DNA of 64,000 nucleotides from a phage: the NCBI GenBank assembly GCA_027262695.1, contig GCA_027262695.1_4722.1, one strand, 5' to 3'. Both the position numbers and the translations under genes were made by a program. Of this stretch, positions 25,450-43,363 are shown piece by piece; the first letter of the stretch is position 1; every line of letters begins with the position of its first letter. Under the pieces are notes generated by a model. The model was not told the origin of the DNA. It did no database searches and was given only the letters and a program-made list of their open reading frames with translations.

Positions 25450-26259
25450 TTACCACTGATTAAAGCTTCCTGCTTTAACGACGTCGCAACGCAGATGGTT
25501 ACGTAATTGATCCAGGAAGACAACCGGGCTATCGCCGGATAGCATGGTCAGGGCGTGCTGCCCACCGGAACGAACAACCAGCTCATCAACCATCGGTGCG
25601 GTAATCGGAAGATCGTACGCATCCATGATGGCTTTAGCTTCCTGTTCGAGGTCTTTCTGGAAGCCTTCCATCGTCGGAGAGTCGTATTTGGTTGCAAACT
25701 CGATCCCAGGTAAGTTGACATAATCGTACGTCATAACGCGGGTCATTACACGACGTCGCTCACGTTGCCAAATCTGAGGATCGGTTAACGCACGTACTGA
25801 AAAACACACGTTCACCAACGGCGTTTCAAAGTCTTTACGTAACGCATCGCCATACGGACCACAAGGAATAACATCCCCCATCACCATCACGACAGGACGA
25901 CCGCGACGATCGCGTCCCGATTCCTCTAACCAAATCTTAGAAAAGCAATGGCTTACCTTGGTTTCTTCGATTCGTAACGCACGCTGTAAAAAACTGGTTG
26001 CGTCCTGCCCAACTTCTGGTTTCGGATGACCGTACTCACCTTTCAATGAACGGTTACGTGCGTTCGTTTGCAACAAGCTGTTTTCTAAGAACAGCGGTTT
26101 CGAACGTTCAAGTTCGTAATATTCTTCGGTATTGTTAAAGCAGTTAAATCCGCCTATGACACAGGTGTAGGCACCGTCGGCGTTAGGACGGATAATGCCT
26201 TTCTTATTCACACCAAGATAACTGGTGCAAACAAGATTACTAATTGGTGGTTGCATCAT
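25450..26259 (-). CDS. hypothetical protein
   Basis: ORF track, 269 aa. Confidence 0.6.
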   Translation of the reverse strand: MMQPPISNLVCTSYLGVNKKGIIRPNADGAYTCVIGGFNCFNNTEEYYELERSKPLFLENSLLQTNARNRSLKGEYGHPKPEVGQDATSFLQRALRIEETKVSHCFSKIWLEESGRDRRGRPVVMVMGDVIPCGPYGDALRKDFETPLVNVCFSVRALTDPQIWQRERRRVMTRVMTYDYVNLPGIEFATKYDSPTMEGFQKDLEQEAKAIMDAYDLPITAPMVDELVVRSGGQHALTMLSGDSPVVFLDQLRNHLRCDVVKAGSFNQW

Positions 26260-27025: not shown

Positions 27026-27736
27026 TTACCCCCTCAGAATCGCTTCTGTTTCGCTGATCGTATCCGCAGGATAAACCAAACTACTGTCGATGGCGTTATT
27101 GACGTAACCACCCATTAAGTTGGTGATGGTGTTTGTACCGCTATCGATGATGTTTCGTAATCCGATATCGATGGCTTTTAACGTACTGCGTTCCTCATCA
27201 GAAAGCAAACGCCAGGCTCGACGACGGTCGTTGGGATCACGCGTGGTGATAGACGCCAGAACAGAATAAATGCTGCTGTCTGCGTTCAGCTTAACCCCAG
27301 CTAATTTTGCAGAGGTATACAACAACTGATATTTCTCTTTCTCGGTGTACCACCATGGCACCTTACCGAGTGTATAGATCTCGTTATACATCAACCAAGG
27401 AAAAGAGTTGCGCATAACAACATCGGTCGATACCAACACGGTATCACCTGGAAGAAAGACAAATTCATAAAACGGTTGACCATCCATGGTAATCTCACGG
27501 ATGTCGGACGGGTCGATATGGAGCTGGGTCAATGCGTGGCTGACACCATACTGACCATCGGGAAGAATAATCGGGCAGCACGCACAAACCCGGTTCTCAC
27601 TCCCGATGATAGATAAACCCAATCCCTCGTAACGGACGGGTGTCAGAATCGAACACCCGCCACGAGTAACAACAGATTTATCTTCTTGTATGTCCCAGTC
27701 CGCAAGCACCGCAGCACCGTTGCGGACAAGCGCCAT
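27026..27736 (-). CDS. hypothetical protein
   Basis: ORF track, 236 aa. Confidence 0.6.
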   Translation of the reverse strand: MALVRNGAAVLADWDIQEDKSVVTRGGCSILTPVRYEGLGLSIIGSENRVCACCPIILPDGQYGVSHALTQLHIDPSDIREITMDGQPFYEFVFLPGDTVLVSTDVVMRNSFPWLMYNEIYTLGKVPWWYTEKEKYQLLYTSAKLAGVKLNADSSIYSVLASITTRDPNDRRRAWRLLSDEERSTLKAIDIGLRNIIDSGTNTITNLMGGYVNNAIDSSLVYPADTISETEAILRG

Positions 27737-29550: not shown

Positions 29551-30651
29551 TTATTTGGCTTCGTTAAAATAAATATCAACGGCACGTTCCGTTGCGTAGA
29601 GAAGACCCAGATTCACGGTCCCTACCACTTCCGGTGAACCGATGATACGGTTAGCGATACTGGTGCCACTGAAGATAGCATCAAGGGTGTGCCCGTCTTC
29701 GGTTTTGTTCACACCATGACCCACGGAAGAGACAACGGATTTTGCCTGTGCTGCGAAGGTACCTTTATCCCCCATTCCCGCACCCAGGTCGTAACGCATG
29801 AAAATACGGATGGCGATCTGGTTCTCGCCTAACGGATTACCGTCTATTCTCACGTTACTGTTGTTGATGCGTCCCGTTGTTGCTTCGTTGAGTTTCAGTT
29901 CCTTAACGCGTTTAGCTCGCGCTTTATCCGCTTCACCCACAAGTGCTGCCATGGTTTCACTCATGTCTTCAATCTGGGCACGATACAACACATCGATCTG
30001 TACGACTTCACCATGCACGTCAGCCCGTGGGTTATACTGACTCATACGGCGTAACGCTTCAACCGCTTCCTGACTTTCATCGCTCAGATCGGTCGCAATC
30101 GGTTCTTCCAGTGTTGCCAGGATCGTCCGAGGTTCAACATGATCGCCGATTTTCACCAAACCACGAATGTTGAGATGAGCGTCAACAATGAGCGTACGAC
30201 TCTTAATCGATGGTGTTACGAGACGATCAGCGAGATTGTCGAAGATATACGAACTGTCCTCGTGCGTTTCTGGAATATCCAAAATACCAACCAAAGACAG
30301 AACGCCTGCGCGCCAAACCACCTGACCTGGGTTCCACCAATCCCGTTTGAAATAAAGACGATGGAATACCACTACATCCTGATCCTTAACGCGATCACCA
30401 ACTTTATAATCGGTAATGAGATCGTGAGGATAATACTTACCTGGTCCTTTCCCGATTATCGTACCGAGTTGGAAAACCTCTTCCCCTAATTCTGGATCGT
30501 CGTATTGTATCGTAAGCGCTGTTTTGGTGACCTTCTTCACAACACCATCGCCTTGAGCAGCTGCTGCGAAGAGTTTACCAACACGATGCGCGATAACAGT
30601 CTCACCACCTGTACGCCATGGTTGTACGTCGTAACCTTCAGCAGCTATCAT
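29551..30651 (-). CDS. RNA polymerase beta-subunit segment, 3' exon (GDK catalytic-region motif)
   Basis: 366 aa ORF; ...YDLGAGMGDKGTFAAQAKSVVS aligns to the E. coli rpoB GDKMAGRHGNKGVIS region, and IGDHVEPRTILATL / PRADVHGEVVQIDVLY align to upstream rpoB segments; the frame stays open upstream to a stop at 30796..30798, so the exon probably starts between 30652 and 30795. Confidence 0.6.
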   Translation of the reverse strand: MIAAEGYDVQPWRTGGETVIAHRVGKLFAAAAQGDGVVKKVTKTALTIQYDDPELGEEVFQLGTIIGKGPGKYYPHDLITDYKVGDRVKDQDVVVFHRLYFKRDWWNPGQVVWRAGVLSLVGILDIPETHEDSSYIFDNLADRLVTPSIKSRTLIVDAHLNIRGLVKIGDHVEPRTILATLEEPIATDLSDESQEAVEALRRMSQYNPRADVHGEVVQIDVLYRAQIEDMSETMAALVGEADKARAKRVKELKLNEATTGRINNSNVRIDGNPLGENQIAIRIFMRYDLGAGMGDKGTFAAQAKSVVSSVGHGVNKTEDGHTLDAIFSGTSIANRIIGSPEVVGTVNLGLLYATERAVDIYFNEAK

Positions 30652-31148
30652 GCGGTTGTGCTGTATACCTATAAATACGAGACGCTTTGGCGAAATCCAG
30701 CAAAATACAATTACTGTGCGTCTAGATTGTTCAGATAAGGTCGTTAATCTTATCCCGGTGGTGATGATAGGTGCATCACCAACCCGCTTGCGCTCTCACG
30801 CAAGAGCAGACTATATCACATCTCGTTTCAAACGGTGCTTCTTCAGCGCCTCAACGAGAGTTCACTTCTTCCCAGCGCATCCAGCGCCATTCTCTTATCC
30901 AAGGAGAATGCCTCACTCGAGGGGTACAGGGGGATGAATCCCTTAGTCGTTGAACCGTCACCCTAGAACGTTTCACAACGATCCTTAGGCGATTGGCTGC
31001 GGATTGTCCTTAAGCTATTATCTGTTTTATAACCATACCGTCTTTCTTTTCAGAATCCGTTTTGGTCGATAACAGCGATGGATGTCTTCGCAATTCAGTG
31101 AATCTCATCTACATGTCGCCATATAGACGGACCCTGCTATTAAAAGCG
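30652..31148 (-). ncRNA. group I self-splicing intron (boundaries approximate) in the RNAP beta gene
   Basis: Minus strand carries an R-like element GGTTCAACGACTAAGGGATT (30956..30937) and an S-like element TGATATAGTCT (30818..30808) that can form P7 (GACTA/TAGTC), followed by a P9-like hairpin (30806..30786); no ORF >60 aa in the correct orientation. Confidence 0.55.
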
Positions 31149-34100
31149 TTAATCATCTCTGTCGGCAGCAGGTACTGCAAGTGCCGATGTACTCATTATT
31201 GACGAGCTACCATCCGTTTTCTCGTCGTAAGGTTTTGTTTCACCGTATACAGACACGATGTTTGCGTTAGGTGCAAGATAAGCAGAGATACCTACATCGC
31301 CACTGTCCTTCGTACCTTCAGATACCACACCGATGTCTGACTTGTCGTATTCACGATCGCGTGCGCGTCGAAGCGATGTTTTCGAACGACCCCCGATACC
31401 GGTCATCGTTGCTTCTTCACCCTGCTTGATATCCAACATCGGGTTGGTTTCATCGATGACAATAGAAGCACTGTCGTCAAGGATTTGGTTCCAAACGCTC
31501 ACCGGACTGATTGAGATCTTCTGTCGGTTGCCTTGGCTGCTGTTCTCGTTTTGACGAATAGCACCAACCAGATCCTTATACACCAACTCAGCGAACTTAT
31601 CGTACGTTTTGAAGCGCTGGTAGTTCACATCGTTCGTGTTCGGTGCCCAATCATCCAGAAGCAGTTCAACAGCACGTAATAACAACATGGCGAAATCAGT
31701 CGGTTCACCCATGTTCTGCAATAATGTACGACTTACCGGGTCGACGAAAAGACGCTCCATGAGTTCAAGTTCGCGAAGATGACGAACCTTAAGACCTGCA
31801 CCATCGACAACGTTAAAATAGATATCCCGATTGTCAAAAGCGCCGCGAGCGTAACCGATGTAATTACGGTATTCGTTAAATCCACCCAACAACAATGTCG
31901 TCATTCGATCATCTTTACTGAAGATCAAACTTTCATCGTCGAAGCTTACCGCGAATTCATCCGATGCTAAGCCCATACGAGAACCACGAACTACCGTACG
32001 GTAGTTCGCTTTAAGATGTTCTAATAACGGAGTAAGTCCGCCTAGGTAACTTAGCACAACGCCAACCGGGATACGTACGCCCATGAACTCAAGGTCAGCG
32101 GCTTCGATAGGCATCTTCGCGGCATTGATACCGAAGAAATCAGGGAACGTTCCAACCGGCGTTGGGGTTTGATTCGGTTCGTAAACGTACAACTGATTCT
32201 GATTATCCACCGCCAGGAATTCACCGTTGGTGTTTTTGGCGAACGTTAAGAATCCACCCGCCAGCTGTTCGGTGAACAAATCTGCGCCGATATGTTCTGG
32301 CAACGTTTTGATATCGAGGCGTATGTCCCAATCCGCAAATTGAATTTGGGTGTAGTTACGCGCAAGCACAGCGAAGTAATACGGAACTTTGACAGCCGGA
32401 TCAAAGACGTTACCACGTTTTAAGGTGGTTAGCGGGGAGGTTTTATCGTAATACATCGCTGTGAGTTGACGTGTTAACCAACGACCAGCATTATTCACGA
32501 CACGCTCTGAACGTTTAACAAACACCTTACCGTAGGCGGTACTCAACGCAACTTCGGATGATGATACCTTTCTGATAGGTTTATCAACACGTTGTTTACG
32601 CATCCGGTATTTAATACCGTTAACGACATAAATACCGTCCTTACGAACCTTCGGTAACATCACCGGGAACGTCGTTGGAACACCACCCACCGGAGCCAGC
32701 TTGATCGTGATGACCTGGTAATCACCCATCACGTCAACAACATCTTCAACTTTATATCCGGTAACAGGATAGCCTGCTTGTTGCACTGCCACAACGGCCG
32801 CTGCGATGTCCTTTTGCATCACGTGTTCAACGTAATGTTTATCCCACACCGCAAGCGTCGATTTACATAGGCTCTTATCGACGATAACATCCGCTTCCGG
32901 CATAACCTTTGCTGGCGCTAATTTCGCGGCTTTTGGTTTAACCTCAACGTATTCAGCAAGCGTTAGTCCAGAACCGTCAGGTGCTTCAATTTCATGAATC
33001 GCGTCAGCGTTACGCATCGCGGCTTTATATTGAACGCCGCTTAATTGACCCGCATCCGCGAGGTCGCTCGCACGTACCAACACCGCATCGGATAACGACT
33101 GAATATATTCACCGTGCGTTTTCGGCAACGTTGCCGCATCGAAGACATCATCTTTTTCTTCCGGCACGTCGTCGTTGACGACCTCAAAGAGATCATCGGT
33201 GATGTCTTGATCTTCGTCCGGTTGAAAATCGGGCTGAACTTCAACGCCCGGGACTTCACGAACATCTTCGAACGCACGCTCAACAACCGCGTTCCATGCT
33301 TCAGCGTCGTCATCCTCATCCGATCCTCCGATCAACTCGCTTTCCAGTTCATCGGGGTCAAGAACGGTATCGAGATCCTCACCGTTAGGAAGCACGACAT
33401 CACGTTCATCGTACTCCGCATCGGGACTGTCTGCGAGAATATCACGCTCCTGACGAAGAACCTGCTCCTCTTCTTGTTTCTGTTCTTCTTCGTTGGCGCT
33501 CTGCGACCACAGACGGGTTACCGCCATCATCCAACGACGCTGGAATGTTTCAAGCGTTGTCTTATCAAGTTCCTCGCCTTCCTTCGCCAAACCCGAACGC
33601 CATTCTTCCATTAAACCAAGATTCAGGGTAAAGAAATAGACGCCGTCCGTAAATACAACGTTAAGCTTATCCAGCGAAGCACGATCCAATGACGCCATCG
33701 TACTGTTCTCACGATCGACACCTAACCAGCGGAAGAAGTCAAAGAACGACAGCTCCTCTGAGGTGGCAAAATTCATGAGGTTATTACGGGTTGGGGCTTG
33801 TTGTGTCGTACGCATCAACGATATCTTCGGTAACGTCGACGGGATACGGAATAACAAGAACTGCTGACGGTCGCTTTGCTTGGCGATCTCGTTTGCTTGC
33901 GTCCAAATCGTTTTACGCACGTTGAACCACTCATCATACCAACGTGTTAGCGTCGGACGATAGATGTACATGTGGTTAAGATGCGCATAGTTAGCCACGA
34001 TCTGGGCGTTGATGTTCTTCTCAACCTTGCTAAGATCGGTGACCAAACGAAAACGACGATGCGATGCACGGTAATCCAGTTTCGCACGCGGTAGCTGAAA

Positions 34101-34358
34101 TCGCTGATCGCGTCGAGGCGCGCCTTGCTTGGTTGCGAGGTCATCCGCGAACGATATCCAAAGCTGTGCACTTTCTTTGCTCAGCATGTATTCGTTTTCA
34201 GGAGGACCTATTAACGAAGGATCGGTTGCTGTGTAATGATAAACAGCATAACGCGGCAGCTGCAAAAGCTGCACCAAACGCAATCTAGGTGATAATAACT
34301 CTTGATAACGTCGTACACCGAATTGTCTGTAGTAATCAAGGTATTTAAGTTTTGCCAT
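31149..34358 (-). CDS. RNA polymerase beta-like subunit, N-terminal and middle part (5' exon), with a long N-terminal extension
   Basis: 1069 aa; C-terminal region NPMLDIKQGEEATMTGIGGRSK...VSVYGETKPY aligns to the rpoB fork segment [26 protein letters not shown]...LSVYAQTNEY; own ATG with a GGAG RBS; acidic low-complexity insert. Confidence 0.65.
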   Translation of the reverse strand: MAKLKYLDYYRQFGVRRYQELLSPRLRLVQLLQLPRYAVYHYTATDPSLIGPPENEYMLSKESAQLWISFADDLATKQGAPRRDQRFQLPRAKLDYRASHRRFRLVTDLSKVEKNINAQIVANYAHLNHMYIYRPTLTRWYDEWFNVRKTIWTQANEIAKQSDRQQFLLFRIPSTLPKISLMRTTQQAPTRNNLMNFATSEELSFFDFFRWLGVDRENSTMASLDRASLDKLNVVFTDGVYFFTLNLGLMEEWRSGLAKEGEELDKTTLETFQRRWMMAVTRLWSQSANEEEQKQEEEQVLRQERDILADSPDAEYDERDVVLPNGEDLDTVLDPDELESELIGGSDEDDDAEAWNAVVERAFEDVREVPGVEVQPDFQPDEDQDITDDLFEVVNDDVPEEKDDVFDAATLPKTHGEYIQSLSDAVLVRASDLADAGQLSGVQYKAAMRNADAIHEIEAPDGSGLTLAEYVEVKPKAAKLAPAKVMPEADVIVDKSLCKSTLAVWDKHYVEHVMQKDIAAAVVAVQQAGYPVTGYKVEDVVDVMGDYQVITIKLAPVGGVPTTFPVMLPKVRKDGIYVVNGIKYRMRKQRVDKPIRKVSSSEVALSTAYGKVFVKRSERVVNNAGRWLTRQLTAMYYDKTSPLTTLKRGNVFDPAVKVPYYFAVLARNYTQIQFADWDIRLDIKTLPEHIGADLFTEQLAGGFLTFAKNTNGEFLAVDNQNQLYVYEPNQTPTPVGTFPDFFGINAAKMPIEAADLEFMGVRIPVGVVLSYLGGLTPLLEHLKANYRTVVRGSRMGLASDEFAVSFDDESLIFSKDDRMTTLLLGGFNEYRNYIGYARGAFDNRDIYFNVVDGAGLKVRHLRELELMERLFVDPVSRTLLQNMGEPTDFAMLLLRAVELLLDDWAPNTNDVNYQRFKTYDKFAELVYKDLVGAIRQNENSSQGNRQKISISPVSVWNQILDDSASIVIDETNPMLDIKQGEEATMTGIGGRSKTSLRRARDREYDKSDIGVVSEGTKDSGDVGISAYLAPNANIVSVYGETKPYDEKTDGSSSIMSTSALAVPAADRDD

Positions 34359-34361
34359 GGG

Positions 34362-34548
34362 TTAGGCTCCACGAGGTCCCGTTAAGTTGCGTAATAGGAA
34401 CGCAACCGTATCGTAACCAATATCAATGTTGAATTTATTTTTACCGCTTACCCAGAAAGCACGCTTCTTGTGCGAGTTGGTAATTTCGTCGATGGCTTCC
34501 ATGGAATAAAGAACGTTAACCGAGACCGTATCACCGTCGAACCTTGTC
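34362..34548 (-). CDS. RNA polymerase beta-prime N-terminal subunit, 3' exon carrying the FDGD catalytic motif
   Basis: Minus-strand frame open from 34562: RTEAKTRFDGDTVSVNVLYSMEAIDEITNSHKKRAFWVSGKNKFNIDIGYDTVAFLLRNLTGPRGA-stop; resembles rpoC [20 protein letters not shown]...SQDVVLGLYY; stop TAA lies 3 nt before the beta-gene ATG. Confidence 0.5.
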
Positions 34549-35198
34549 TTCGCCTCAGTTCGCTACGCTGAGACCGCCTGCATGGATACGTACATGACAG
34601 GCTGCTTGCACTTTCATGCAAGAGGAGACTATATCAAACCGGCAGCTTCACCTTCTCGATCGTATCGAGAATGCGGTGCTGAAGTATTCTTCAGCAGCAC
34701 CTGCTACGGTAACCTACACTTCGAAGACGCTTGTCCTCTACAGGGTGGTAAATCCCTTAGTCGTTGAACCTGCGTTGTTTCCCATTCTTGGTTGCAAGAA
34801 TGCCGTATTACTACGCAACAACCAGGCTGCTGATTGCCCATTGTCTCGCACCTTAGCACCGCTTACGCGGCTTTTCTTTCAGCCTAAGCCTCTTACGGAG
34901 GTAGTGCATCTCAACTGTTGTTTCTGCCTTTCGGCACCCCATGGGTCGTTGAGCTTTAGGGGTTCCCAGCAATTCGTAGGTTTTTCAAGCACTCCCTTTC
35001 GGGAATACCGGACAACTTCCCTTGAAAAAAGTCTTTATTTTTCAAGGACTTATCCCCGCCGAGTCCCTGGAGGTACGGGCTCGGAATGCAAACCGTTTCT
35101 ACGAACGATGCTTTTTGTTTCCAATCAGGGTATTCCCATGCGATATATCGTTCGTCAGTAATCGGTTCCCAATTACTATCAAGTTCTGTCTTGGGAGA
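34549..35198 (-). ncRNA. group I self-splicing intron (boundaries approximate) in the RNAP beta-prime gene
   Basis: Minus strand carries R-like GGTTCAACGACTAAGGGATT (34770..34751), S-like TGATATAGTCT (34636..34626) and a P9-like hairpin (34622..34605) that shows a compensatory pair change relative to the other intron. Confidence 0.55.
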
Positions 35199-36518
35199 AG
35201 CGTTAACGGTTGTACGCGCATAACAGGTTAACGGAATGACTGACTGCATGCCCGATACCGGATAACGTGTTACCATCGCAGCCAGGTTGTTCCAGTATTT
35301 ATATCCTGCGATATAGATAAGCTCAGTATAAGTAATGGGGTGAACATCCGCACCAGGTTTGTTAAGCATCTCTGGCGGTATTTCACTCATACCGCGGAAA
35401 AGTCGGAATGAATCGTTGTTTACATAAACCAAACAGAGATAACGACCATTCACCATGATAGGTTCGTTACGTACGCCTGGATCGCTTAGCGTGTTCAATA
35501 AACGTTCGATACCATCCCAAGTAGTAAAGTCATCGATGGTGTCAGGATCAAGTACGACTCGTTCACGTTCCATCGTTTCGGTATCGATAAGCTCAACCTC
35601 GGTAACATCACGGACGAAGATCTCTTGCAAAATACCAGTACGTAATGCGTGTTGCGTTATCGGAAGGGCTGCTTTGCTCATCTGGTATAGACCAAGCTGT
35701 ACAGATGTACATGACGTTTGGTTTGGAGAACCGAGAACCTCCGTTGTGGGGTTAATTGCCGAAATAACGTTACGGGTTGAGTTCCAAACACGACGTGAAC
35801 CGAACTTACCTTGGAAGATCCCTTTCTTACCCTGGAACATATCCAACAGCAATGCGTAGATATCATTGAAGGTTCTTTGCAGGCTCCAGCGCTGTCCGTC
35901 GTAGACAGGATCGTTGTAGTCCTTTAATCCATCGGGAACGGTATTGGAGATAGCAAGGAAACGACGGTAGAGCTCCGTGATTTCTTGTTCGCTTTCATAC
36001 CCGCCTTCCTTTACTTCTATTTCACGAAGACCAGCAGGTAACACCAATAAATGACGGGTCATCGCTTTGAACATGTTTTCTTCGACAACTTTAATACGCA
36101 GTTCTCGTTGCGCTGAACCTGTTGAAACGAACTTGATCTCCGCAACGTGTTGTGCGAAGAAACCGTAGCCGGTTTGTCCCGTTAATGCGTCAGCAGCAAC
36201 GAAATCACGCTGTTCTGGATCCCATCGTGCATAAGCTTTACCGGACATGATATCGCCATAAAGGTGTTTCAATCGAATAAGGCGATCGTAAATGACCGGA
36301 TGCAAGATTTCCACTTTACACTCGATGACCGCAAAGCGGCGATCACGATCTTCACTACCCGCACTCCCAAAGATGGTGTATGAATAAAAACCATCATCAT
36401 GGAAATTACCCGTACTCGGGTCACGGATACTCATGCTGGTAATCTTAGGAAGGAAACGCAACTGCTGCTTATCAAGATGCAGTATACTGATATTGAACGG
36501 CTCTCTGACTTTAGCCAT
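35199..36518 (-). CDS. RNA polymerase beta-prime N-terminal subunit, 5' exon (ORF reads through into the intron to 34956)
   Basis: ORF 34956..36551; start trimmed to Met 12 (AAGGAG RBS); LPAGLREI...GGYESEQEITELYRRF resembles rpoC [44 protein letters not shown] resembles GKRVDYSGRSVI; homology ends near ...ARTTVNA (about 35199). Confidence 0.6.
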
Positions 36519-36691
36519 GGATGCACTCCTTAAATAAGGCGGCGGTATCATCTGAACACATGAGAGACGTAATGGGTGAAGCCATCACCCATCGCTTCCC
36601 TGCTTGATGCGAGGAAGGTATTAAATTACGTACCTGTCCGATGGCCTCGAACAGGCGATGTATGAAGCTATGCTTCAATTTGGAGGTATAC

Positions 36692-39600
36692 ATGGTAGAT
36701 AAAACCCGTGTTGAGGGTGATGATAATTGGGATAACTGGGATGAGGACTTCTCCCTGGATCTCGATTTTGATGAACCCAAAGACGACCGTAAGCCCATAA
36801 CCCGTTATGCAATAGGTGTCGCCAAAGGGGCTGCTGAAGATCTTACTTCCTACGAAAGAATGAAGGAGATCGCCAGAAACGCATTACCTAAGGGTTATAG
36901 CGACGGTATGGATCTTATCGATTCCGCCGTCGGATCCACGAAGGAACTATACAATGAAGCCGTTCGTGACATTCTTCCGAAGGTACAAAGCTCAAAACGG
37001 TTAGCCGCACAACTGACGAAAAAATACCGTGCGAGCATGCCCGATTTCTCGAAGAAAATTATCGAGCGTTGGGAGCAAGAAGCCAAGGAAGAAGACGAAC
37101 GTAAACAGGCGGAAGCCGATCTTAAACAACGCATGGCGAATGCAGGTGATGAAGAAATCGCTCGCAAGGTCGCTGAGGCGTTAGGAGAAGCGGCTAACCA
37201 GAACGCGGATCAGTTTGCAGAACAACAAGCAAAAGAAAGTATCCGTGACGATATTGCTGATAAACGTTATAATGTCACCAACAAACAGATGAGCGCGATG
37301 CAGGAAGGCATCGCCAAGATGGTTGGTTTCAATAACGAATTCGCCGCACGCTATATGCGTAAAAGCCTGGAACTAAAATACCGTTCTTTGGCGATACAAC
37401 GCGCGAGTTTCGATCAGCATAAAAAGTTAGCCGAAGTCTATATCGGTTTATTACAGAACATCCAAAAGAACACGGCTTTACCGGATGCGGCTAAAGCAAA
37501 AATGTCGGAAGAATTTCGTCGCACAGCGTACCAACGTTTCTTTGGTAACGCATTGAATGCGATGAGTTCTTTCGAGAACCGTTTCTTTGCTGATGTTAAG
37601 AAAAACCTTGCAACCAATGCGTTGGGTGCGTTGAAAGGTGTTGTGTCTGGCGCACACGACGCCCTCTCCGGTTTAAACGAAGCACGCGACTCGATGTCCA
37701 TGATGGACGGTATGGGGTCAGAAGGCGATATTAAGGAAATGCAAGGGAAGATGCTGGGTCAGTTGATCGGCTCAACCGTTGCACCATGGATGGCGAATAA
37801 AGGCATGACGGCATTGCGGGATTTAGCAAAACGTCATCCTAACGCTAAATTCGCCAACGCGTTAAAAGCGGTCGATCAAGGCGGTGAAGCTGCTGCTTAT
37901 ACAACGCGTAACGTTGGGAAACTGCTGCAAGAAGATCTTCGTAAAAACGAATTCAACCTCAGCGATCCCTTCTACAAACAGTTCCTGCGTGGGGCTGGAC
38001 GTTGGGCCTTCAATCTGGACGGTGGTCGTAACTTCCGTGTGATGAACGACACCGCGGAGACGTTAGCTGAACAAACATCTTTCGATGGTTTAACCTATCG
38101 TAGCATCAACGAGGTCATTCCCGGATTTCTTGCTCGTATACTGAAAAGCACTGAAGGTATCCGTACCGGTGAAAATGATCCTGATTACGAGGTCTATGAT
38201 GGCATCAGCGGGCAATTCGTTGCTCAACGTACCCGCGAACAAGGTGTAACCGACACCCTCTTTAACAAACGTTCGTTCGGTTATTACGCCGGTCGTTTTA
38301 ATGAAGTTATCTCGGTTATCGATCCCGATAAACAGCTGTCAGAAAAGGCAAGGAAAGCCTTGGCTAAACAGTTAGCACGCGACAGCGATGCGAACATGGC
38401 TTTCGATCCTGCTCGATATACCGACGAAAGTAACTTTGATCGCAGCATCGATAGAGACGCCATTAAAGAACTTTCTGCGTATTTCAAAGATCGTTACGGC
38501 ATTCGTGACGATGTTGATGATGAAGGTAACCGTCAACAGGTTATTGAAAACCGTGGGCAGTACTACACGGAACGTAACCGCGCTGATCTGCGGTACGGTA
38601 ATCTGAAATCCTTGCAGCCGGATATCCAACGCAACCTTAACCTTCTGAAACGTACCGGTGATGTTCAATACCTGGAACGCATCGGGATCGTAACAAGAAA
38701 CAGCGATGGCAGTTATTCGGTTAATCACGATCGTTACTTCTCTGAAATCGATCAATACATCGACCGACCGGAATACGCTGACCGTGGTGATGTTAACACG
38801 CGACTCAGTGCCCAACAGACCAGGGCGTTGGCGTTAGGCTATCGTGACGACGTTGCGTCAAACGCTGACGTACAAAATCGTGCGTTACCAAACCTCGATC
38901 GAACAACGGTCGGAACGGTAAACATCGATGAGAACATCGGATACGAGAAATGGTGGAACGATGCGGGTGTTATCACCACATCGCTTGAAGACCAAAATCG
39001 AGCATGGCAAGAACTCTATCTTGAAGCGCTTCAGGAAGCTTCGCATCAACGTGAAACGATGCTGGAACTTCTGAAAGCGATCTCAGAAAAAGAATGGGGT
39101 GGTAGCGGCGTTGGCCGCCAGGGCGAACCTGGCGGTGAAGAAAGTGATGATCGCTCTATGTTAGGTCGGATCTCCGACCTAACACTAGGTAAAGCCGGTA
39201 GCTATGCCTGGAAAGGTGCAAAAGGAGCTGCCAAGTTCGGATGGAAATGGGGTCGAAAAGCGGCGACATGGGGCGCAAAACGTACGTGGGGAAGCTTCGT
39301 AAACTCAGCGCGTCGAATTATCAACTTCAACCGTTTTGTGTTCGGTGCGTTATCCAAGGTCGATCAAGTTCCGTTTGACATTTACGTTAAAGGTGAAGAT
39401 CGTCCACGTATCTTAGCTGCAAAACTTCGTCAAGGTCTGTATTTCGATGAAGCCACCGGCAAAGCCGTCAAACGGATGAAGGATATTAAAGGTCCGTTAG
39501 TTGATGCTGACGGCAACATCGTCATCAGCGCTGAAGATATCGAGAAGGGATTGATTACGCGCGCTGGACGTGCCTTCGAAAACTCCGGTTTGAAAGCATG

Positions 39601-42600
39601 GGCACGTGAAGGTATCAACGGCATCACCACGGTATTAAGTTTACCAAGACTTTTAAAACGCGGTGCTACGGAGCTTTACAAGCATTTCGATAAAACACCT
39701 GACGTATACGTGACTGGTGAATCCACTCCACGTCTGCTTTCTCTGGTGATGGCGGCAGGCGGTTATTTCCGTAAGTCCGATGGGAAAGTCATCAAGCATC
39801 TGGAAGACATCGACGGTGATGTGGTTGACGCACAAGGAAACGTCATCCTGACCCACGCTGATATGCAGAAAGGGTTGGTCGATAAATACGGTAAGAAGAT
39901 ACGTCGCCTGAAAGAAAAGCTGATCAACTTCGGTGTGAAAGCTTTCACCTTACCGTTAACCTTATTGCGTAAGACAAAAGACATCCTGAAGAATCTCCCC
40001 ACGAAAGCCATGAACGGGTTGCGTCGTATGGGCCTGAACTTCCGTTTACCGGAAGAGGTGCTTATCGGTACAACCGCAGGCATGGTGGATCGTCTCGACG
40101 CTATTTATCAGCTTCTTGATAAACGCATGCCAGGTGGGGATAAGGATTATCGTGATTGGAACGGTGATGGTGTTCGTGAAGGATCGCTTGAAGATCTGAA
40201 ACGTAAACGCGCTGAGAAAGAAGGAGAAAAAGGAGAAGGTACAGGTAAAGGATCCGGGAAAGGAGAAGAGAAGGAGAAGAAAAAAGGAATTCTTGGGAGC
40301 CTTTTCGACATGCTTGGTGACACCGCACTTGGTAAACGTTTAATGGCGAGTCCGCTTGGAAAGATTCTGGGTGGCCTTGGATCCATTCTCAGCGGTGGTG
40401 CATCATTAACGGGGTTACTTGGGAAAGGTTTGCTTAAAGGCTCAGGCGCACTCCTCAGAGGGGGTTTAAGTGCTGCGGGTTGGTTAGGACGTGGTGCCCT
40501 GATGGCAGGCGGTGCTGCGCTTAATGCGGTAGGAGGATTATCCGGGCTTGGTGCTGCGCTTATCTCCCCGGTTGGGTTAGCGATTGCGGGCGGCGCATTA
40601 GCTGCCTATGCGGGTTGGAAAATCTATCAACATTTCGCTGATAAGCCTGACCCGATGCAGAAACTTCGTCTTATTGCATACGGTGCAAAAGGGGATGATA
40701 AGGACTTCAACAAGAAGTTATTGCAAACCGAAACCTACCTTACCGACCATGTGGTCATGACGGGAGATACCATCGGATTCAATCCAAAAGCAGATTCTGA
40801 AAAGATTCTTGAAATCTGGGAACTGTCATTGGAAGATACTGACCGGATGAATGAATGGAAGCGCTGGTATCTACATCGCTTTATCCCCGTTTTCGCTCGT
40901 GCGTTTAAACTCTGGAAAGAGCACATGCCGGACGAGAAGAAGTTCATGGAGATGGACGACTACCCCAACGGTGAGAACAAAGTCAAATGGTCAGAAGCCT
41001 TCATCTGGCCATCGGATAGTCCAGACAGCCCGTACTATGTTGAAGCTAACCCGTTAGGTTCGGCTGGCGCAACGTTATACATCGCGGGACAGGATGTTAA
41101 AAAGCTCATGGAAAGCCAGCTGGAAGTCATCAGGAAGGAATATCAAAACCAGATCAAGAAATACACGCACGATGAAGCGATTAAAGACTGGTCGAAGCTG
41201 TCTGACGCCCAACGTAAGTCCGTTGCGCCTAACGCGTTACGTGGACAGAAAGCCTCTTTACGTTTCAGCGATAACAAGTATAACAGTGCGGGTGTTAAAG
41301 GTCGTCAGAAACTGGACGCTACTGCGGTTGTTGAAAGCGTGGATCGTCGCGGTAAGAAATGGATGGCCGGTGGGTACATCGATGAACTTACCAGTTTACG
41401 TATCCGCGCCTACGGGTTAGAGGTTCCGCTGTTAAGCCAAATCAAGGTATTGATGGAACTGGAAGACGCGGTTGAACCTGGCGTTGTTGCTGAAGGTAAA
41501 GGCGTCAAATACGGCGGTAATCTCGCGGAGCTGTATAAGAAGTTCGCATCGAAATTCGGTCGGGATGTCAACGGCAAACAAGACCAGAACATCTGGTTTG
41601 CCTGGATGAACAACCGTTTCTTGCCGGTCTTCTTAACGTACTATCAGCAAGTTGGCGAGATGGGCGGACAAGGGCTGTTATCAGATGTTGTACAGAATCT
41701 GAAAGACAGCCAGCGTTGGGAAATCGGTGAGGCGTTGGTTGCTGCGCAATACAAGGATGAGAAGGGTGCGCTACAGCCGGTATGGTCGTGGAACAGTTGT
41801 GGTTTCTCTGGCACCAAAGCAAACATGTCCAGCAGTTCAACCAAGAGCCAACTCGATCTGTTAAAAGAATACGCAGATAAAGAGAAGGTTCGTGAGAAGA
41901 ACGCTGAAGCATCGCAGGAGGATGAAGATAAATTATCGAAAATCCAAGAGCAGTTGATGAAGCAAGCGGGATATGAGAAGAAGGACGGTGTTTGGCAGAA
42001 GAAATCACGTATCACGGGTGGGATGAGCAACGCGGAGGCGAACTACAATCCGAACCGTAACGAGGTTGGCAGAAGTAGCTTTACTGCTTCAGCAACCTCC
42101 AGCGCAGGTTTGGGTAGTGGTGGACCGGATATCACCGGGTTACCGAACATGGGACTGAAGAAACCCGCATCAGGTCCTGGTCCAGAAGCGGGTCGTCGTG
42201 CGGCAATTAAATCAGCGGTGAAGCACGGTATTACCGATCCGATGGAAATGGCGATGTTCTTATCGAACCTCGAACATGAATCCGGTAACTACAGGTATGT
42301 CCGCGAACTTAACTACACAAAACCCGACAGTCTGAAGAAAGCGTTCAGTCGTAAATTCAGGGATGAGCAGGACGCTGCCCAGACCATCAGCATGGGTCCA
42401 GAGGCGGTATTCGAACGTGTGTATGGAATGCGTAAGGATCTGGGAAATACCCAGAAAGGTGACGGAGCGAAATATCTGGGGCGTGGTTATATCCAGGTTA
42501 CAGGTAAAGCCAACTACGCACGATTGTCGAAGATCCTGAATAAAGATCTGGTTAGCGATCCATCGTATTTGGAAACCCCAGAAGGTGCAGCCGAAGGGAG

Positions 42601-43363
42601 TGTTGCGTGGTGGCTTAACAGGGGTAACGTATTACGCGATCCCGCAAAGCGTGGCGATGTTCGCCAGGTTCGTTACCTGGTTAACGGGGGGTATAACGGG
42701 CTACGCGATGTTGAGCAACGTTCAGCGTATTGGATTCAAGCTGCTAAAAGCGGTACATTGAAGAAAATGATGGATGAGGTTGCAGGTTCAACCTCAGACG
42801 ATCAAGCTGAAGGTCCGTCTACCGCCAGCCAAGTGAAGAACGAGGAGGCGCAAGAAACCAACAGCACACCAACATCAAGCAACGATCCGCAAGCACCGTC
42901 GGCAACCGCGACGCCTGAAGTCAAACCGTCAGCGGCCTCCGGTACCGCACCGGCACCCGGAACGGCAACACCGACACCAGGAAGTTTCGATACCGCAAAA
43001 GCTGCTGCTGGACAACCAGCGTCAACACCAGCGCCTAGCGAATTACCGTCAAACCCTGGTGCAAATCGAGGAATTTCAGTTCCAAATACACCTGCACAGG
43101 TTGCGCAGTCCGCAACACAAACATCGGCAGCAAGTGAAAACTTCTACGGTAGTGCAGGTGAGATTCTTCGTCAGCAGTTGACCGTGCAACAAAACATCGA
43201 GAAGAACACCGGTAAGACCAACGAACTGATCTCAGAATTGATCCAGGCTGTTAAAGGATCAACGATCGGTAAAGGTTCGACAGGATCTTCTCAACAACAG
43301 ACGATGTCGCTACCTAATCGTCCGCAAGGAATCTCTCCAACACGGACAAGGTACGCGCAGTAG
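36692..43363 (+). CDS. giant virion-associated protein with a C-terminal GH19 lysozyme-like domain (tape-measure or ejection-type)
   Basis: ORF 36641..43363 trimmed to the ATG after a GGAGG RBS; coiled-coil-rich N-terminal two thirds, Gly-rich hydrophobic block, GH19 motifs LEHESGN and YLGRGYIQVTGKANY plus SVAWWLNRG (about 42200..42760), then an Ala/Pro/Thr-rich tail; length close to phiKZ gp181 as recalled. Confidence 0.75.
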   Translation: MVDKTRVEGDDNWDNWDEDFSLDLDFDEPKDDRKPITRYAIGVAKGAAEDLTSYERMKEIARNALPKGYSDGMDLIDSAVGSTKELYNEAVRDILPKVQSSKRLAAQLTKKYRASMPDFSKKIIERWEQEAKEEDERKQAEADLKQRMANAGDEEIARKVAEALGEAANQNADQFAEQQAKESIRDDIADKRYNVTNKQMSAMQEGIAKMVGFNNEFAARYMRKSLELKYRSLAIQRASFDQHKKLAEVYIGLLQNIQKNTALPDAAKAKMSEEFRRTAYQRFFGNALNAMSSFENRFFADVKKNLATNALGALKGVVSGAHDALSGLNEARDSMSMMDGMGSEGDIKEMQGKMLGQLIGSTVAPWMANKGMTALRDLAKRHPNAKFANALKAVDQGGEAAAYTTRNVGKLLQEDLRKNEFNLSDPFYKQFLRGAGRWAFNLDGGRNFRVMNDTAETLAEQTSFDGLTYRSINEVIPGFLARILKSTEGIRTGENDPDYEVYDGISGQFVAQRTREQGVTDTLFNKRSFGYYAGRFNEVISVIDPDKQLSEKARKALAKQLARDSDANMAFDPARYTDESNFDRSIDRDAIKELSAYFKDRYGIRDDVDDEGNRQQVIENRGQYYTERNRADLRYGNLKSLQPDIQRNLNLLKRTGDVQYLERIGIVTRNSDGSYSVNHDRYFSEIDQYIDRPEYADRGDVNTRLSAQQTRALALGYRDDVASNADVQNRALPNLDRTTVGTVNIDENIGYEKWWNDAGVITTSLEDQNRAWQELYLEALQEASHQRETMLELLKAISEKEWGGSGVGRQGEPGGEESDDRSMLGRISDLTLGKAGSYAWKGAKGAAKFGWKWGRKAATWGAKRTWGSFVNSARRIINFNRFVFGALSKVDQVPFDIYVKGEDRPRILAAKLRQGLYFDEATGKAVKRMKDIKGPLVDADGNIVISAEDIEKGLITRAGRAFENSGLKAWAREGINGITTVLSLPRLLKRGATELYKHFDKTPDVYVTGESTPRLLSLVMAAGGYFRKSDGKVIKHLEDIDGDVVDAQGNVILTHADMQKGLVDKYGKKIRRLKEKLINFGVKAFTLPLTLLRKTKDILKNLPTKAMNGLRRMGLNFRLPEEVLIGTTAGMVDRLDAIYQLLDKRMPGGDKDYRDWNGDGVREGSLEDLKRKRAEKEGEKGEGTGKGSGKGEEKEKKKGILGSLFDMLGDTALGKRLMASPLGKILGGLGSILSGGASLTGLLGKGLLKGSGALLRGGLSAAGWLGRGALMAGGAALNAVGGLSGLGAALISPVGLAIAGGALAAYAGWKIYQHFADKPDPMQKLRLIAYGAKGDDKDFNKKLLQTETYLTDHVVMTGDTIGFNPKADSEKILEIWELSLEDTDRMNEWKRWYLHRFIPVFARAFKLWKEHMPDEKKFMEMDDYPNGENKVKWSEAFIWPSDSPDSPYYVEANPLGSAGATLYIAGQDVKKLMESQLEVIRKEYQNQIKKYTHDEAIKDWSKLSDAQRKSVAPNALRGQKASLRFSDNKYNSAGVKGRQKLDATAVVESVDRRGKKWMAGGYIDELTSLRIRAYGLEVPLLSQIKVLMELEDAVEPGVVAEGKGVKYGGNLAELYKKFASKFGRDVNGKQDQNIWFAWMNNRFLPVFLTYYQQVGEMGGQGLLSDVVQNLKDSQRWEIGEALVAAQYKDEKGALQPVWSWNSCGFSGTKANMSSSSTKSQLDLLKEYADKEKVREKNAEASQEDEDKLSKIQEQLMKQAGYEKKDGVWQKKSRITGGMSNAEANYNPNRNEVGRSSFTASATSSAGLGSGGPDITGLPNMGLKKPASGPGPEAGRRAAIKSAVKHGITDPMEMAMFLSNLEHESGNYRYVRELNYTKPDSLKKAFSRKFRDEQDAAQTISMGPEAVFERVYGMRKDLGNTQKGDGAKYLGRGYIQVTGKANYARLSKILNKDLVSDPSYLETPEGAAEGSVAWWLNRGNVLRDPAKRGDVRQVRYLVNGGYNGLRDVEQRSAYWIQAAKSGTLKKMMDEVAGSTSDDQAEGPSTASQVKNEEAQETNSTPTSSNDPQAPSATATPEVKPSAASGTAPAPGTATPTPGSFDTAKAAAGQPASTPAPSELPSNPGANRGISVPNTPAQVAQSATQTSAASENFYGSAGEILRQQLTVQQNIEKNTGKTNELISELIQAVKGSTIGKGSTGSSQQQTMSLPNRPQGISPTRTRYAQ

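Follow-up and report, generated by a model that had tools for sequence, protein, structure and literature searches.

A virion RNA polymerase β subunit gene interrupted by a predicted group I intron in a Goslar-like jumbo phage, and its N-terminal domain and acidic linker

The DNA considered here is a 64,000-nt stretch of a phage genome (contig GCA_027262695.1_4722.1 of NCBI GenBank assembly GCA_027262695.1), hereafter called the window. Its minus strand carries an open reading frame (ORF) of 1069 codons running from ATG to a TAA stop (31149..34358), which an initial annotation had taken for a complete RNA polymerase (RNAP) β subunit. This ORF is now predicted to be the first exon, and not the whole, of an intron-interrupted gene for the β-N subunit of a virion RNA polymerase (vRNAP). 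Exon 1 (31152..34358, minus strand) comprises codons 1–1069 and ends in GAT GAT (Asp1068-Asp1069); it is delimited by the ORF, by its match to PHROG 3148, and by collinearity with gp207 of Escherichia phage Goslar. It is followed by a predicted group I intron of 461 nt (30691..31151, minus strand), recognized by Rfam RF00028 and by its exact insertion relative to Goslar gp207. Exon 2 (29551..30690, minus strand) supplies codons 1070–1448 and the stop, starting with CCA AAG CGT (PKRLVFIGIQHNRM...). The apparent stop of the flagged ORF arises because TAA forms the first three bases of the intron, and the downstream ORF as called covers 29551..30651, with its own ATG at 30651.

Both exons match the same protein family. 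Exon 1 aligns to positions 2–1050 of PHROG 3148, ‘RNA polymerase beta subunit’ (1424 positions), with an E-value of 1.3e-289, and exon 2 aligns to positions 1065–1422 with an E-value of 3.1e-114. The joined exons encode 1448 aa with 96.5% identity to Goslar gp207 and zero gaps, and the spliced product is collinear with Goslar gp207, phiKZ gp178, and SPN3US gp241. At the junction (...GAU/UAACGC...UUUCG/CCAAAG, the slashes marking the splice sites), removal of the intron gives back a gap-free frame. A profile of 36 family sequences aligned by hhalign to E. coli RpoB pairs residues 1054–1279 with RpoB 660–870, unbroken across the junction (probability 91%, E 1e-6). The downstream catalytic motif blocks of β lie in exon 2, which reaches to about residue 1110 of RpoB. 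The remainder of β is therefore placed on another subunit, presumably a separate small one; such an arrangement has been published for SPN3US (PMC5694885).

By homology, the gene product is the β-like subunit (β-N) of a virion-packaged multisubunit RNAP and the counterpart of phiKZ gp178, and the source is assigned on the same basis to the Goslar-like nucleus-forming jumbo phages (Chimalliviridae). The closest sequenced genome is that of Goslar, and as the nucleotide identity is only 88.5%, the phage is distinct from it. Goslar gp207 (YP_009820912) is the orthologue of the window gene; it has the same length of 1448 aa and the same neighbors, namely β′-N upstream, gp208–210 downstream, and a divergent tail lysin. 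In contrast to the window gene, with its intron after Asp1069, Goslar gp207 has no intron. The Goslar vRNAP subunits gp78, gp196, gp205, gp207, and gp210 were found in purified virions by mass spectrometry (preprint 10.64898/2026.04.21.720040), and mass spectrometry likewise identified the β homologues of 201phi2-1 and SPN3US in virions (PMC5694885).

The similarity to cellular RpoB, initially recognized only in the last ~350 aa of the ORF, is indeed very weak at the level of sequence. No Pfam match was obtained for exon 1, sub-regions of exon 1, or exon 2 at E ≤ 10 (for exon 1 also none at E ≤ 0.1), and phmmer and family-profile searches of PDB sequences returned no RNAP chain. The failure of Pfam RNA_pol_Rpb2 means that the family is too divergent, and it is no argument against homology. 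Alignment to E. coli RpoB with hhalign, for which a 98-sequence family profile was used in the N-terminal blocks, gives short motif blocks only, at ~10–12% identity. Residues 568–594 align with RpoB 127–153 (E 0.018) and residues 969–1050 with RpoB 516–597 (E 0.031), both weak individually; residues 1053–1069 align with RpoB 659–675, and residues 1310–1418 with RpoB 1005–1107 (E 0.0055). All blocks are collinear, and their offsets place RpoB residue 1 at about residue 450–490 of the window protein. The Asp-Asp pair (D674-D675 in RpoB) and the GDK...KG catalytic block are conserved.

The predicted structure extends this similarity much further toward the N-terminus. In a Foldseek search against the PDB, the β-N subunit of the non-virion RNA polymerase (nvRNAP) of phage AR9 (7s00_c, 484 aa) was matched with an E-value of 1.4e-8, a target-normalized template modelling (TM) score of 0.61, and a probability of 1.00. 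The phiKZ nvRNAP chains 9rjs_E and 8que_E (gp71/73) were also matched with a probability of 1.00, as were dozens of bacterial RpoB chains and the second-largest subunits of archaeal, eukaryotic, and African swine fever virus polymerases. The alignments span 600–711 columns; since the Foldseek output holds no residue ranges, the position of the match was set through hhalign. The nvRNAP β-N chains are the best structural matches to residues ~480–1069. On this basis, residues ~481–1069 (31152..32918, minus strand) are predicted to form the standard N-terminal half of β, with protrusion, lobe, and fork, equivalent to RpoB ~1–675. Standard β is thus modelled to begin at about residue 480 and not at 720. 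The region without bacterial counterpart, estimated at ~700 aa in the initial annotation, is reduced to ~450–490 aa by AlphaFold2 (AF2), Foldseek, and hhalign; residues ~480–720 do align by structure to standard β domains, the outcome that the initial annotation had named as refuting its reading. Compared with E. coli RpoB, the window protein has collinear blocks from RpoB 127 to 1107 and the same fold (Foldseek), and it differs in having ~450–490 extra N-terminal residues and in ending at ~RpoB 1110.

The anatomy of these extra residues was modelled with AF2 on a 21-sequence alignment, with a mean predicted local distance difference test (pLDDT) score of 77.5. Three zones are seen: residues 1–289 are folded (pLDDT ~85), residues 290–420 are disordered (29–50), and residues 421–985 are very confident (~90). 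The first zone contains a vRNAP-specific α/β domain, the N-terminal domain (NTD; residues 1–265, 33564..34358, minus strand, from the AF2 model). When residues 1–300 were modelled alone, the pLDDT rose to 91.6 with a predicted TM score of 0.89. Fold searches with the NTD gave no RNAP or other close structural match, and no nucleic-acid-binding fold was detected. Its weak structural match to BFVD entry A0A223LD65, an uncharacterized protein of 921 aa from Bacillus phage PBS1 (E 2.8e-3, query TM 0.36), may represent a divergent NTD in the vRNAP β of non-chimallivirus jumbo phages, PBS1 being related to AR9. An NTD shared with other packaged proteins, for example as a portal propeptide, was also sought and rejected: BFVD gave no such match, nor did the best 150 of the 1059 HMMER matches include one.

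A long helix leads from the NTD to the linker (residues 266–299, 33462..33563, minus strand; AF2 and alignment) and contains the invariant Gln273 in a QRRW / QKRFLR motif. The linker that follows is acidic and predicted to be disordered, as judged from pLDDT and composition (residues ~300–420, 33099..33461, minus strand). The strongly acidic tract of the initial annotation, whose quoted strings correspond to residues ~346–408, is real: counted over 141 residues, the linker holds 50 D+E against 9 K+R (35% D+E, net charge −41), and residues ~281–420 hold 14–15 D+E per 40 residues. It had been described as an insert in β; in the model it is a linker that joins the phage-specific NTD to the β body. 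Between linker and β body lies a small helical segment (DLADAGxxSGxxY...; residues ~421–480, 32919..33098, minus strand) with a pLDDT of 80–90, helices at 422–435 and 441–451, and conserved G437 and P460. It stands upstream of the first RpoB-alignable motif, and its assignment, to the extension or to β, is uncertain.

Far from being peculiar to this phage, the extension occurs throughout the family, and the literature has already noted it. What is new here is a Goslar-like phage with an endonuclease-less intron at a known hotspot. A homologue search with the linker included gave one match, probably through crowding by acidic low-complexity sequences, so a linker-free query was used; the alignment query added only four proteins. 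A tblastn search with residues 1–428 retrieved 244 jumbo-phage records, including phiKZ, PhiPA3, SPN3US-like phages, RAY, and Vibrio phages, with alignments that take in roughly the first 180–290 residues and extend no further than the point where the linker begins. An exhaustive HMMER scan with the NTD profile found 1059 cluster representatives, 917 of them at E ≤ 1e-10, and the NTD was N-terminal in all of the top 150 matches. The linker was acidic in 155 of 155 members (median net charge −23, never neutral or positive), with a length of 65–238 aa (median 136) and a median D+E content of 26%, compared with 12% elsewhere; its net charge is −35 in phiKZ gp178 and −27 in 201phi2-1. Among the first homologues found, identity in the linker is 15.7%, against 27–43% in the flanks. 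Both NTD and linker are under purifying selection: relative to Goslar, the NTD has 101 synonymous and 10 non-synonymous differences, and the linker has 50 and 11, respectively. The proteins phiKZ gp178, SPN3US gp241, and 201phi2-1 gp273/274 share the domain order NTD-linker-β body, are encoded in a head-gene module near the prohead protease, and are packaged; their NTDs differ in being only ~22–35% identical to that of the window protein.

The nvRNAP β-N subunits, by contrast, are ~485–493 aa long, have no NTD or acidic linker, and belong to polymerases that are not packaged. The structurally matched ones measure 484–493 aa and are therefore too short for NTD plus linker. The NTD and the always-acidic linker are the only parts of the packaged β subunit that are missing from the matched non-packaged ones. 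Moreover, the vRNAP β of 201phi2-1 loses a 275-aa N-terminal propeptide at TFE-275 during head maturation (Ali et al. 2017, PMC5694885). It is because of the shortness of nvRNAP β-N and the propeptide removal in 201phi2-1 that the module is linked to packaging. The combined reading of gene structure, vRNAP identity, and domain architecture is considered very likely.

The initial annotation had proposed virion packaging or interaction with a nucleus shell as possible roles of the extension. Packaging, or else ejection, is the most reasonable candidate role, given Goslar gp207 in virions and the 201phi2-1 propeptide. A nucleus-shell interaction is rejected as unlikely on published localization data: in phiKZ, tagged vRNAP stays in the cytoplasm and is kept out of the phage nucleus, is present at ~10 copies per virion, and is delivered with the DNA (Antonova et al. 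2023, PMC10612078). In the proposed mechanism, NTD and acidic linker would form a module specific to the packaged polymerase, which would dock the pre-assembled enzyme onto internal prohead components via the NTD. The prohead protease would then remove the NTD in some lineages, such as 201phi2-1, and others would keep it, such as SPN3US. The flexible acidic linker would serve as the tether between NTD and enzyme, and it may also hold the DNA-binding face off the densely packed genome until ejection. This functional model is offered tentatively and with slightly less than even confidence. The NTD and linker bear on how a five-subunit polymerase may be loaded into the capsid, stay inert beside DNA, pass through the tail, and be reactivated.

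A candidate prohead-protease site of the S/A/G/T-x-E type is present at the boundary of NTD and helix: T268-L269-E270 (33549..33557, minus strand), a weak candidate taken from the alignment and a motif list. Measured from the conserved NLGxLxxWR motif, its distance is about that of TFE-275 in 201phi2-1, in an alignment register that is ambiguous owing to a ~60-aa insertion in 201phi2-1. Capsid targeting sequences of the T4 type and jumbo-phage propeptides are similar in that the N-terminal region is removable at S/A/G/T-x-E, as shown for 201phi2-1. The T4-type sequences are unlike the NTD in being peptides of 10–20 aa, whereas the NTD is a folded domain of 265 aa, kept in at least one relative and putative as a targeting element.

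Several observations speak against the reading developed so far. The packaging role is putative, and the NTD fold has no match to any other virion protein in BFVD. Conservation of a protease site where the NTD ends was considered and rejected, as the motif occurs at this position in only 8 of 143 relatives. SPN3US vRNAP keeps its N-terminal region and works with it attached, and the region is thus not merely a disposable signal (PMC5694885). The models came without coordinates or inter-domain confidence, so contact of NTD or linker with the polymerase cleft is not readable from them, and no solved vRNAP structure was found. For the intron, the RF00028 score is just 1 bit over the threshold, and splicing is predicted. 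In addition, no convincing P1 pairing (internal guide sequence) was seen near the 5′ end of the intron in a search by eye, the sole candidate being GUUAUC ~80 nt into the intron, which could pair with GAUGAU.

The rival account of the module that survives best, itself rather unlikely, assigns NTD and linker to transcription. On this view, the linker would occupy the DNA channel as an intramolecular mimic of DNA, like region 1.1 of sigma70, and the NTD may provide promoter specificity for a sigma-less enzyme. A charge-based mimic predicts what is seen in the 155 members, namely acidity that is kept though the sequence is not. The linker is attached beside the β lobe/protrusion, one jaw of the DNA channel, and the active virion enzyme of SPN3US keeps the region. 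Furthermore, no sigma factor has been found in these phages, all five listed vRNAP subunits are fragments of β or β′, and the NTD is under strong purifying selection. On the other hand, 201phi2-1 cuts the NTD off before the enzyme is used, although the acidic linker would stay, and the NTD shows no nucleic-acid-binding fold; the proposal is by analogy. A related idea, considered quite improbable, is a built-in gate in which the linker would mimic DNA in the main channel, hold the enzyme away from the tightly packed genome, and be displaced, or the NTD be cleaved, only after ejection, in the early-infection vesicle; the NTD may again supply promoter specificity.

Against the spliced gene stands the view that no splicing occurs, in which the intron would be a dead remnant and the locus would yield two polypeptides, one of 1069 aa and one of 366 aa from the ATG at 30651. 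This would be one further natural split in an already split polymerase family. The downstream ORF has its own ATG, β and β′ are naturally split in the vRNAP family, the gene calls of many relatives stop at the same Asp-Asp, and the Rfam score is marginal (51 vs 50). However, 13 codons separate the 3′ splice site from the first downstream ATG, and they are conserved in frame with Goslar, with 6 synonymous and 2 non-synonymous differences; no start codon occurs among them, and no Shine-Dalgarno sequence precedes the ATG at 30651. The RF00028 match (30787..31153, minus strand; 51.0 bits, gathering score 50) covers the full model, 1–253 of 253, and its alignment includes conserved segments of the core, for example GAUAUAGUCU and CCGCAGCCAA. 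The U...G boundaries, the restored 1448-aa frame, the position of the break within a motif that aligns unbroken to RpoB, and a described PhiPA3 intron at the same site also oppose two polypeptides, which are regarded as highly improbable. The literal earlier reading, a complete 1069-aa β with ~700 N-terminal residues lacking an RpoB counterpart, is in keeping with an ORF that runs from ATG to stop and with sequence methods that show no RpoB similarity before ~residue 568, but it has a negligible probability, as the stop codon is intron sequence, residues ~480–1069 match the AR9 and phiKZ nvRNAP β-N and cellular β by structure over 600–711 columns, and the RpoB 127–153 motif aligns to residues 568–594.

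The predicted intron has the boundaries expected for group I, with a U preceding the 5′ splice site and a G preceding the 3′ one. Its first bases are TAACGC, it ends in ...TTTCG with a terminal G, and the 5′ exon ends in U. The insertion lies directly after the universally conserved Asp-Asp (D674-D675 of E. coli RpoB). Over the 60 nt that surround the junction, nucleotide identity between the window and Goslar drops to 0.67, compared with 0.88 overall, and this dip supports splicing, since co-conversion of exon sequence during intron homing is expected to leave such a mark. In the exon flanks (~31100..31220 and 30630..30720), identity to Goslar is 0.67–0.77 within ~60–90 nt of the insertion site, and the changes are almost all synonymous. 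The dip looks like a co-conversion tract, or like selection for resistance to a homing endonuclease.

No homing endonuclease gene is present in the intron: no sense-strand ORF of ≥60 aa occurs within 30691..31151, and 461 nt is too short for an endonuclease ORF of the PhiPA3 gp210 type. In PhiPA3, a mobile group I intron after the same two aspartates of the vRNAP β gene (gp211/gp209) contains the gene of an HNH endonuclease, gp210 (Birkholz et al. 2024, PMC11620839). The insertion site is thus the same, whereas the window intron has no endonuclease ORF and its 3′ part is related to the td intron of T4. In blastn searches, the window intron showed no similarity to Pseudomonas phage introns. For the 201phi2-1 gene gp273/274, the annotation records an interruption by a mobile element.

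The td-like segment of the intron is 31 nt long (30728..30758, minus strand; blastn 31/31). This segment (CCGGGATAAGATTAACGACCTTATCTGAACA) is a 100% match to the td (thymidylate synthase) group I intron, in its 3′-terminal hairpin region. It was found by blastn in >200 Tevenvirinae records, from T4-like phages whose hosts include E. coli, Shigella, and Yersinia, and in phage G2469 it falls within the region of the td intron. The distance from the segment to the 3′ splice site is 7 nt in td and 37 nt in the β intron. A 3′ splice site placed instead where td has it, after CTGAACAATCTAG, was rejected, since it leaves exon 2 out of frame. The identical segment suggests that intron pieces may have been exchanged between unrelated coliphages.

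The surrounding gene order is that of phiKZ gp180-gp179-gp178 and 201phi2-1 gp275-gp273/274, with the prohead protease nearby. The β′-N gene (34362..36551, minus strand), a homologue of phiKZ gp180 and Goslar gp205, lies upstream of the β gene. A homologue of Goslar gp210, a listed vRNAP subunit, lies downstream (27026..27736, minus strand; PHROG 2926, ‘virion structural protein’), with two small virion-protein genes between it and the β gene. The prohead maturation protease follows (25450..26259, minus strand; PHROG 3014). On the other side, a divergent tail lysin gene (36641..43363, plus strand) encodes a tail protein of 2240 aa that carries a lysozyme/endolysin domain at its C-terminus and is a homologue of phiKZ gp181 by position. 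Three of the five vRNAP subunit genes thus lie within 10 kb, counting both split genes.

An Rfam scan of the window found two group I introns in total. The second (34542..35051, minus strand; 510 nt, with 58 bits at 34605..35037) splits the β′-N gene into exons 35052..36551 and 34362..34541. Joining these exons yields a protein of 559 aa, with a stop codon 3 nt upstream of the β ATG. This intron cuts the catalytic Mg-binding motif DFDGD: exon 1 ends in ...GLGGD and exon 2 starts with FDGDTVSV.... The 531-aa ORF at 34956..36551 therefore has an intron-encoded tail. The intron of Goslar β′-N contains a ~1.6-kb insert with gp206, which is phiKZ ORF179-like and presumably a homing endonuclease gene; in contrast, the window copy lacks the insert and has no endonuclease gene.

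Gene callers will misreport both intron-split genes, β and β′-N. Full-length β is found in only 35 of 146 cluster representatives with the NTD. In the class of 940–1140 aa, 47 of 48 end at, or ≤16 aa past, the conserved ..DD (D1068-D1069 of the window protein). In the class of 500–720 aa, 54 of 56 end at or just past the conserved RKQRxD, which corresponds to D592 and is uninterrupted in the window. Because the gene calls of most representatives stop at these two motifs, the vRNAP β gene is suggested to be a major hotspot of introns or gene splits in jumbo phages, and the truncated representatives mark two or three recurrent interruption hotspots, be they introns or gene splits.

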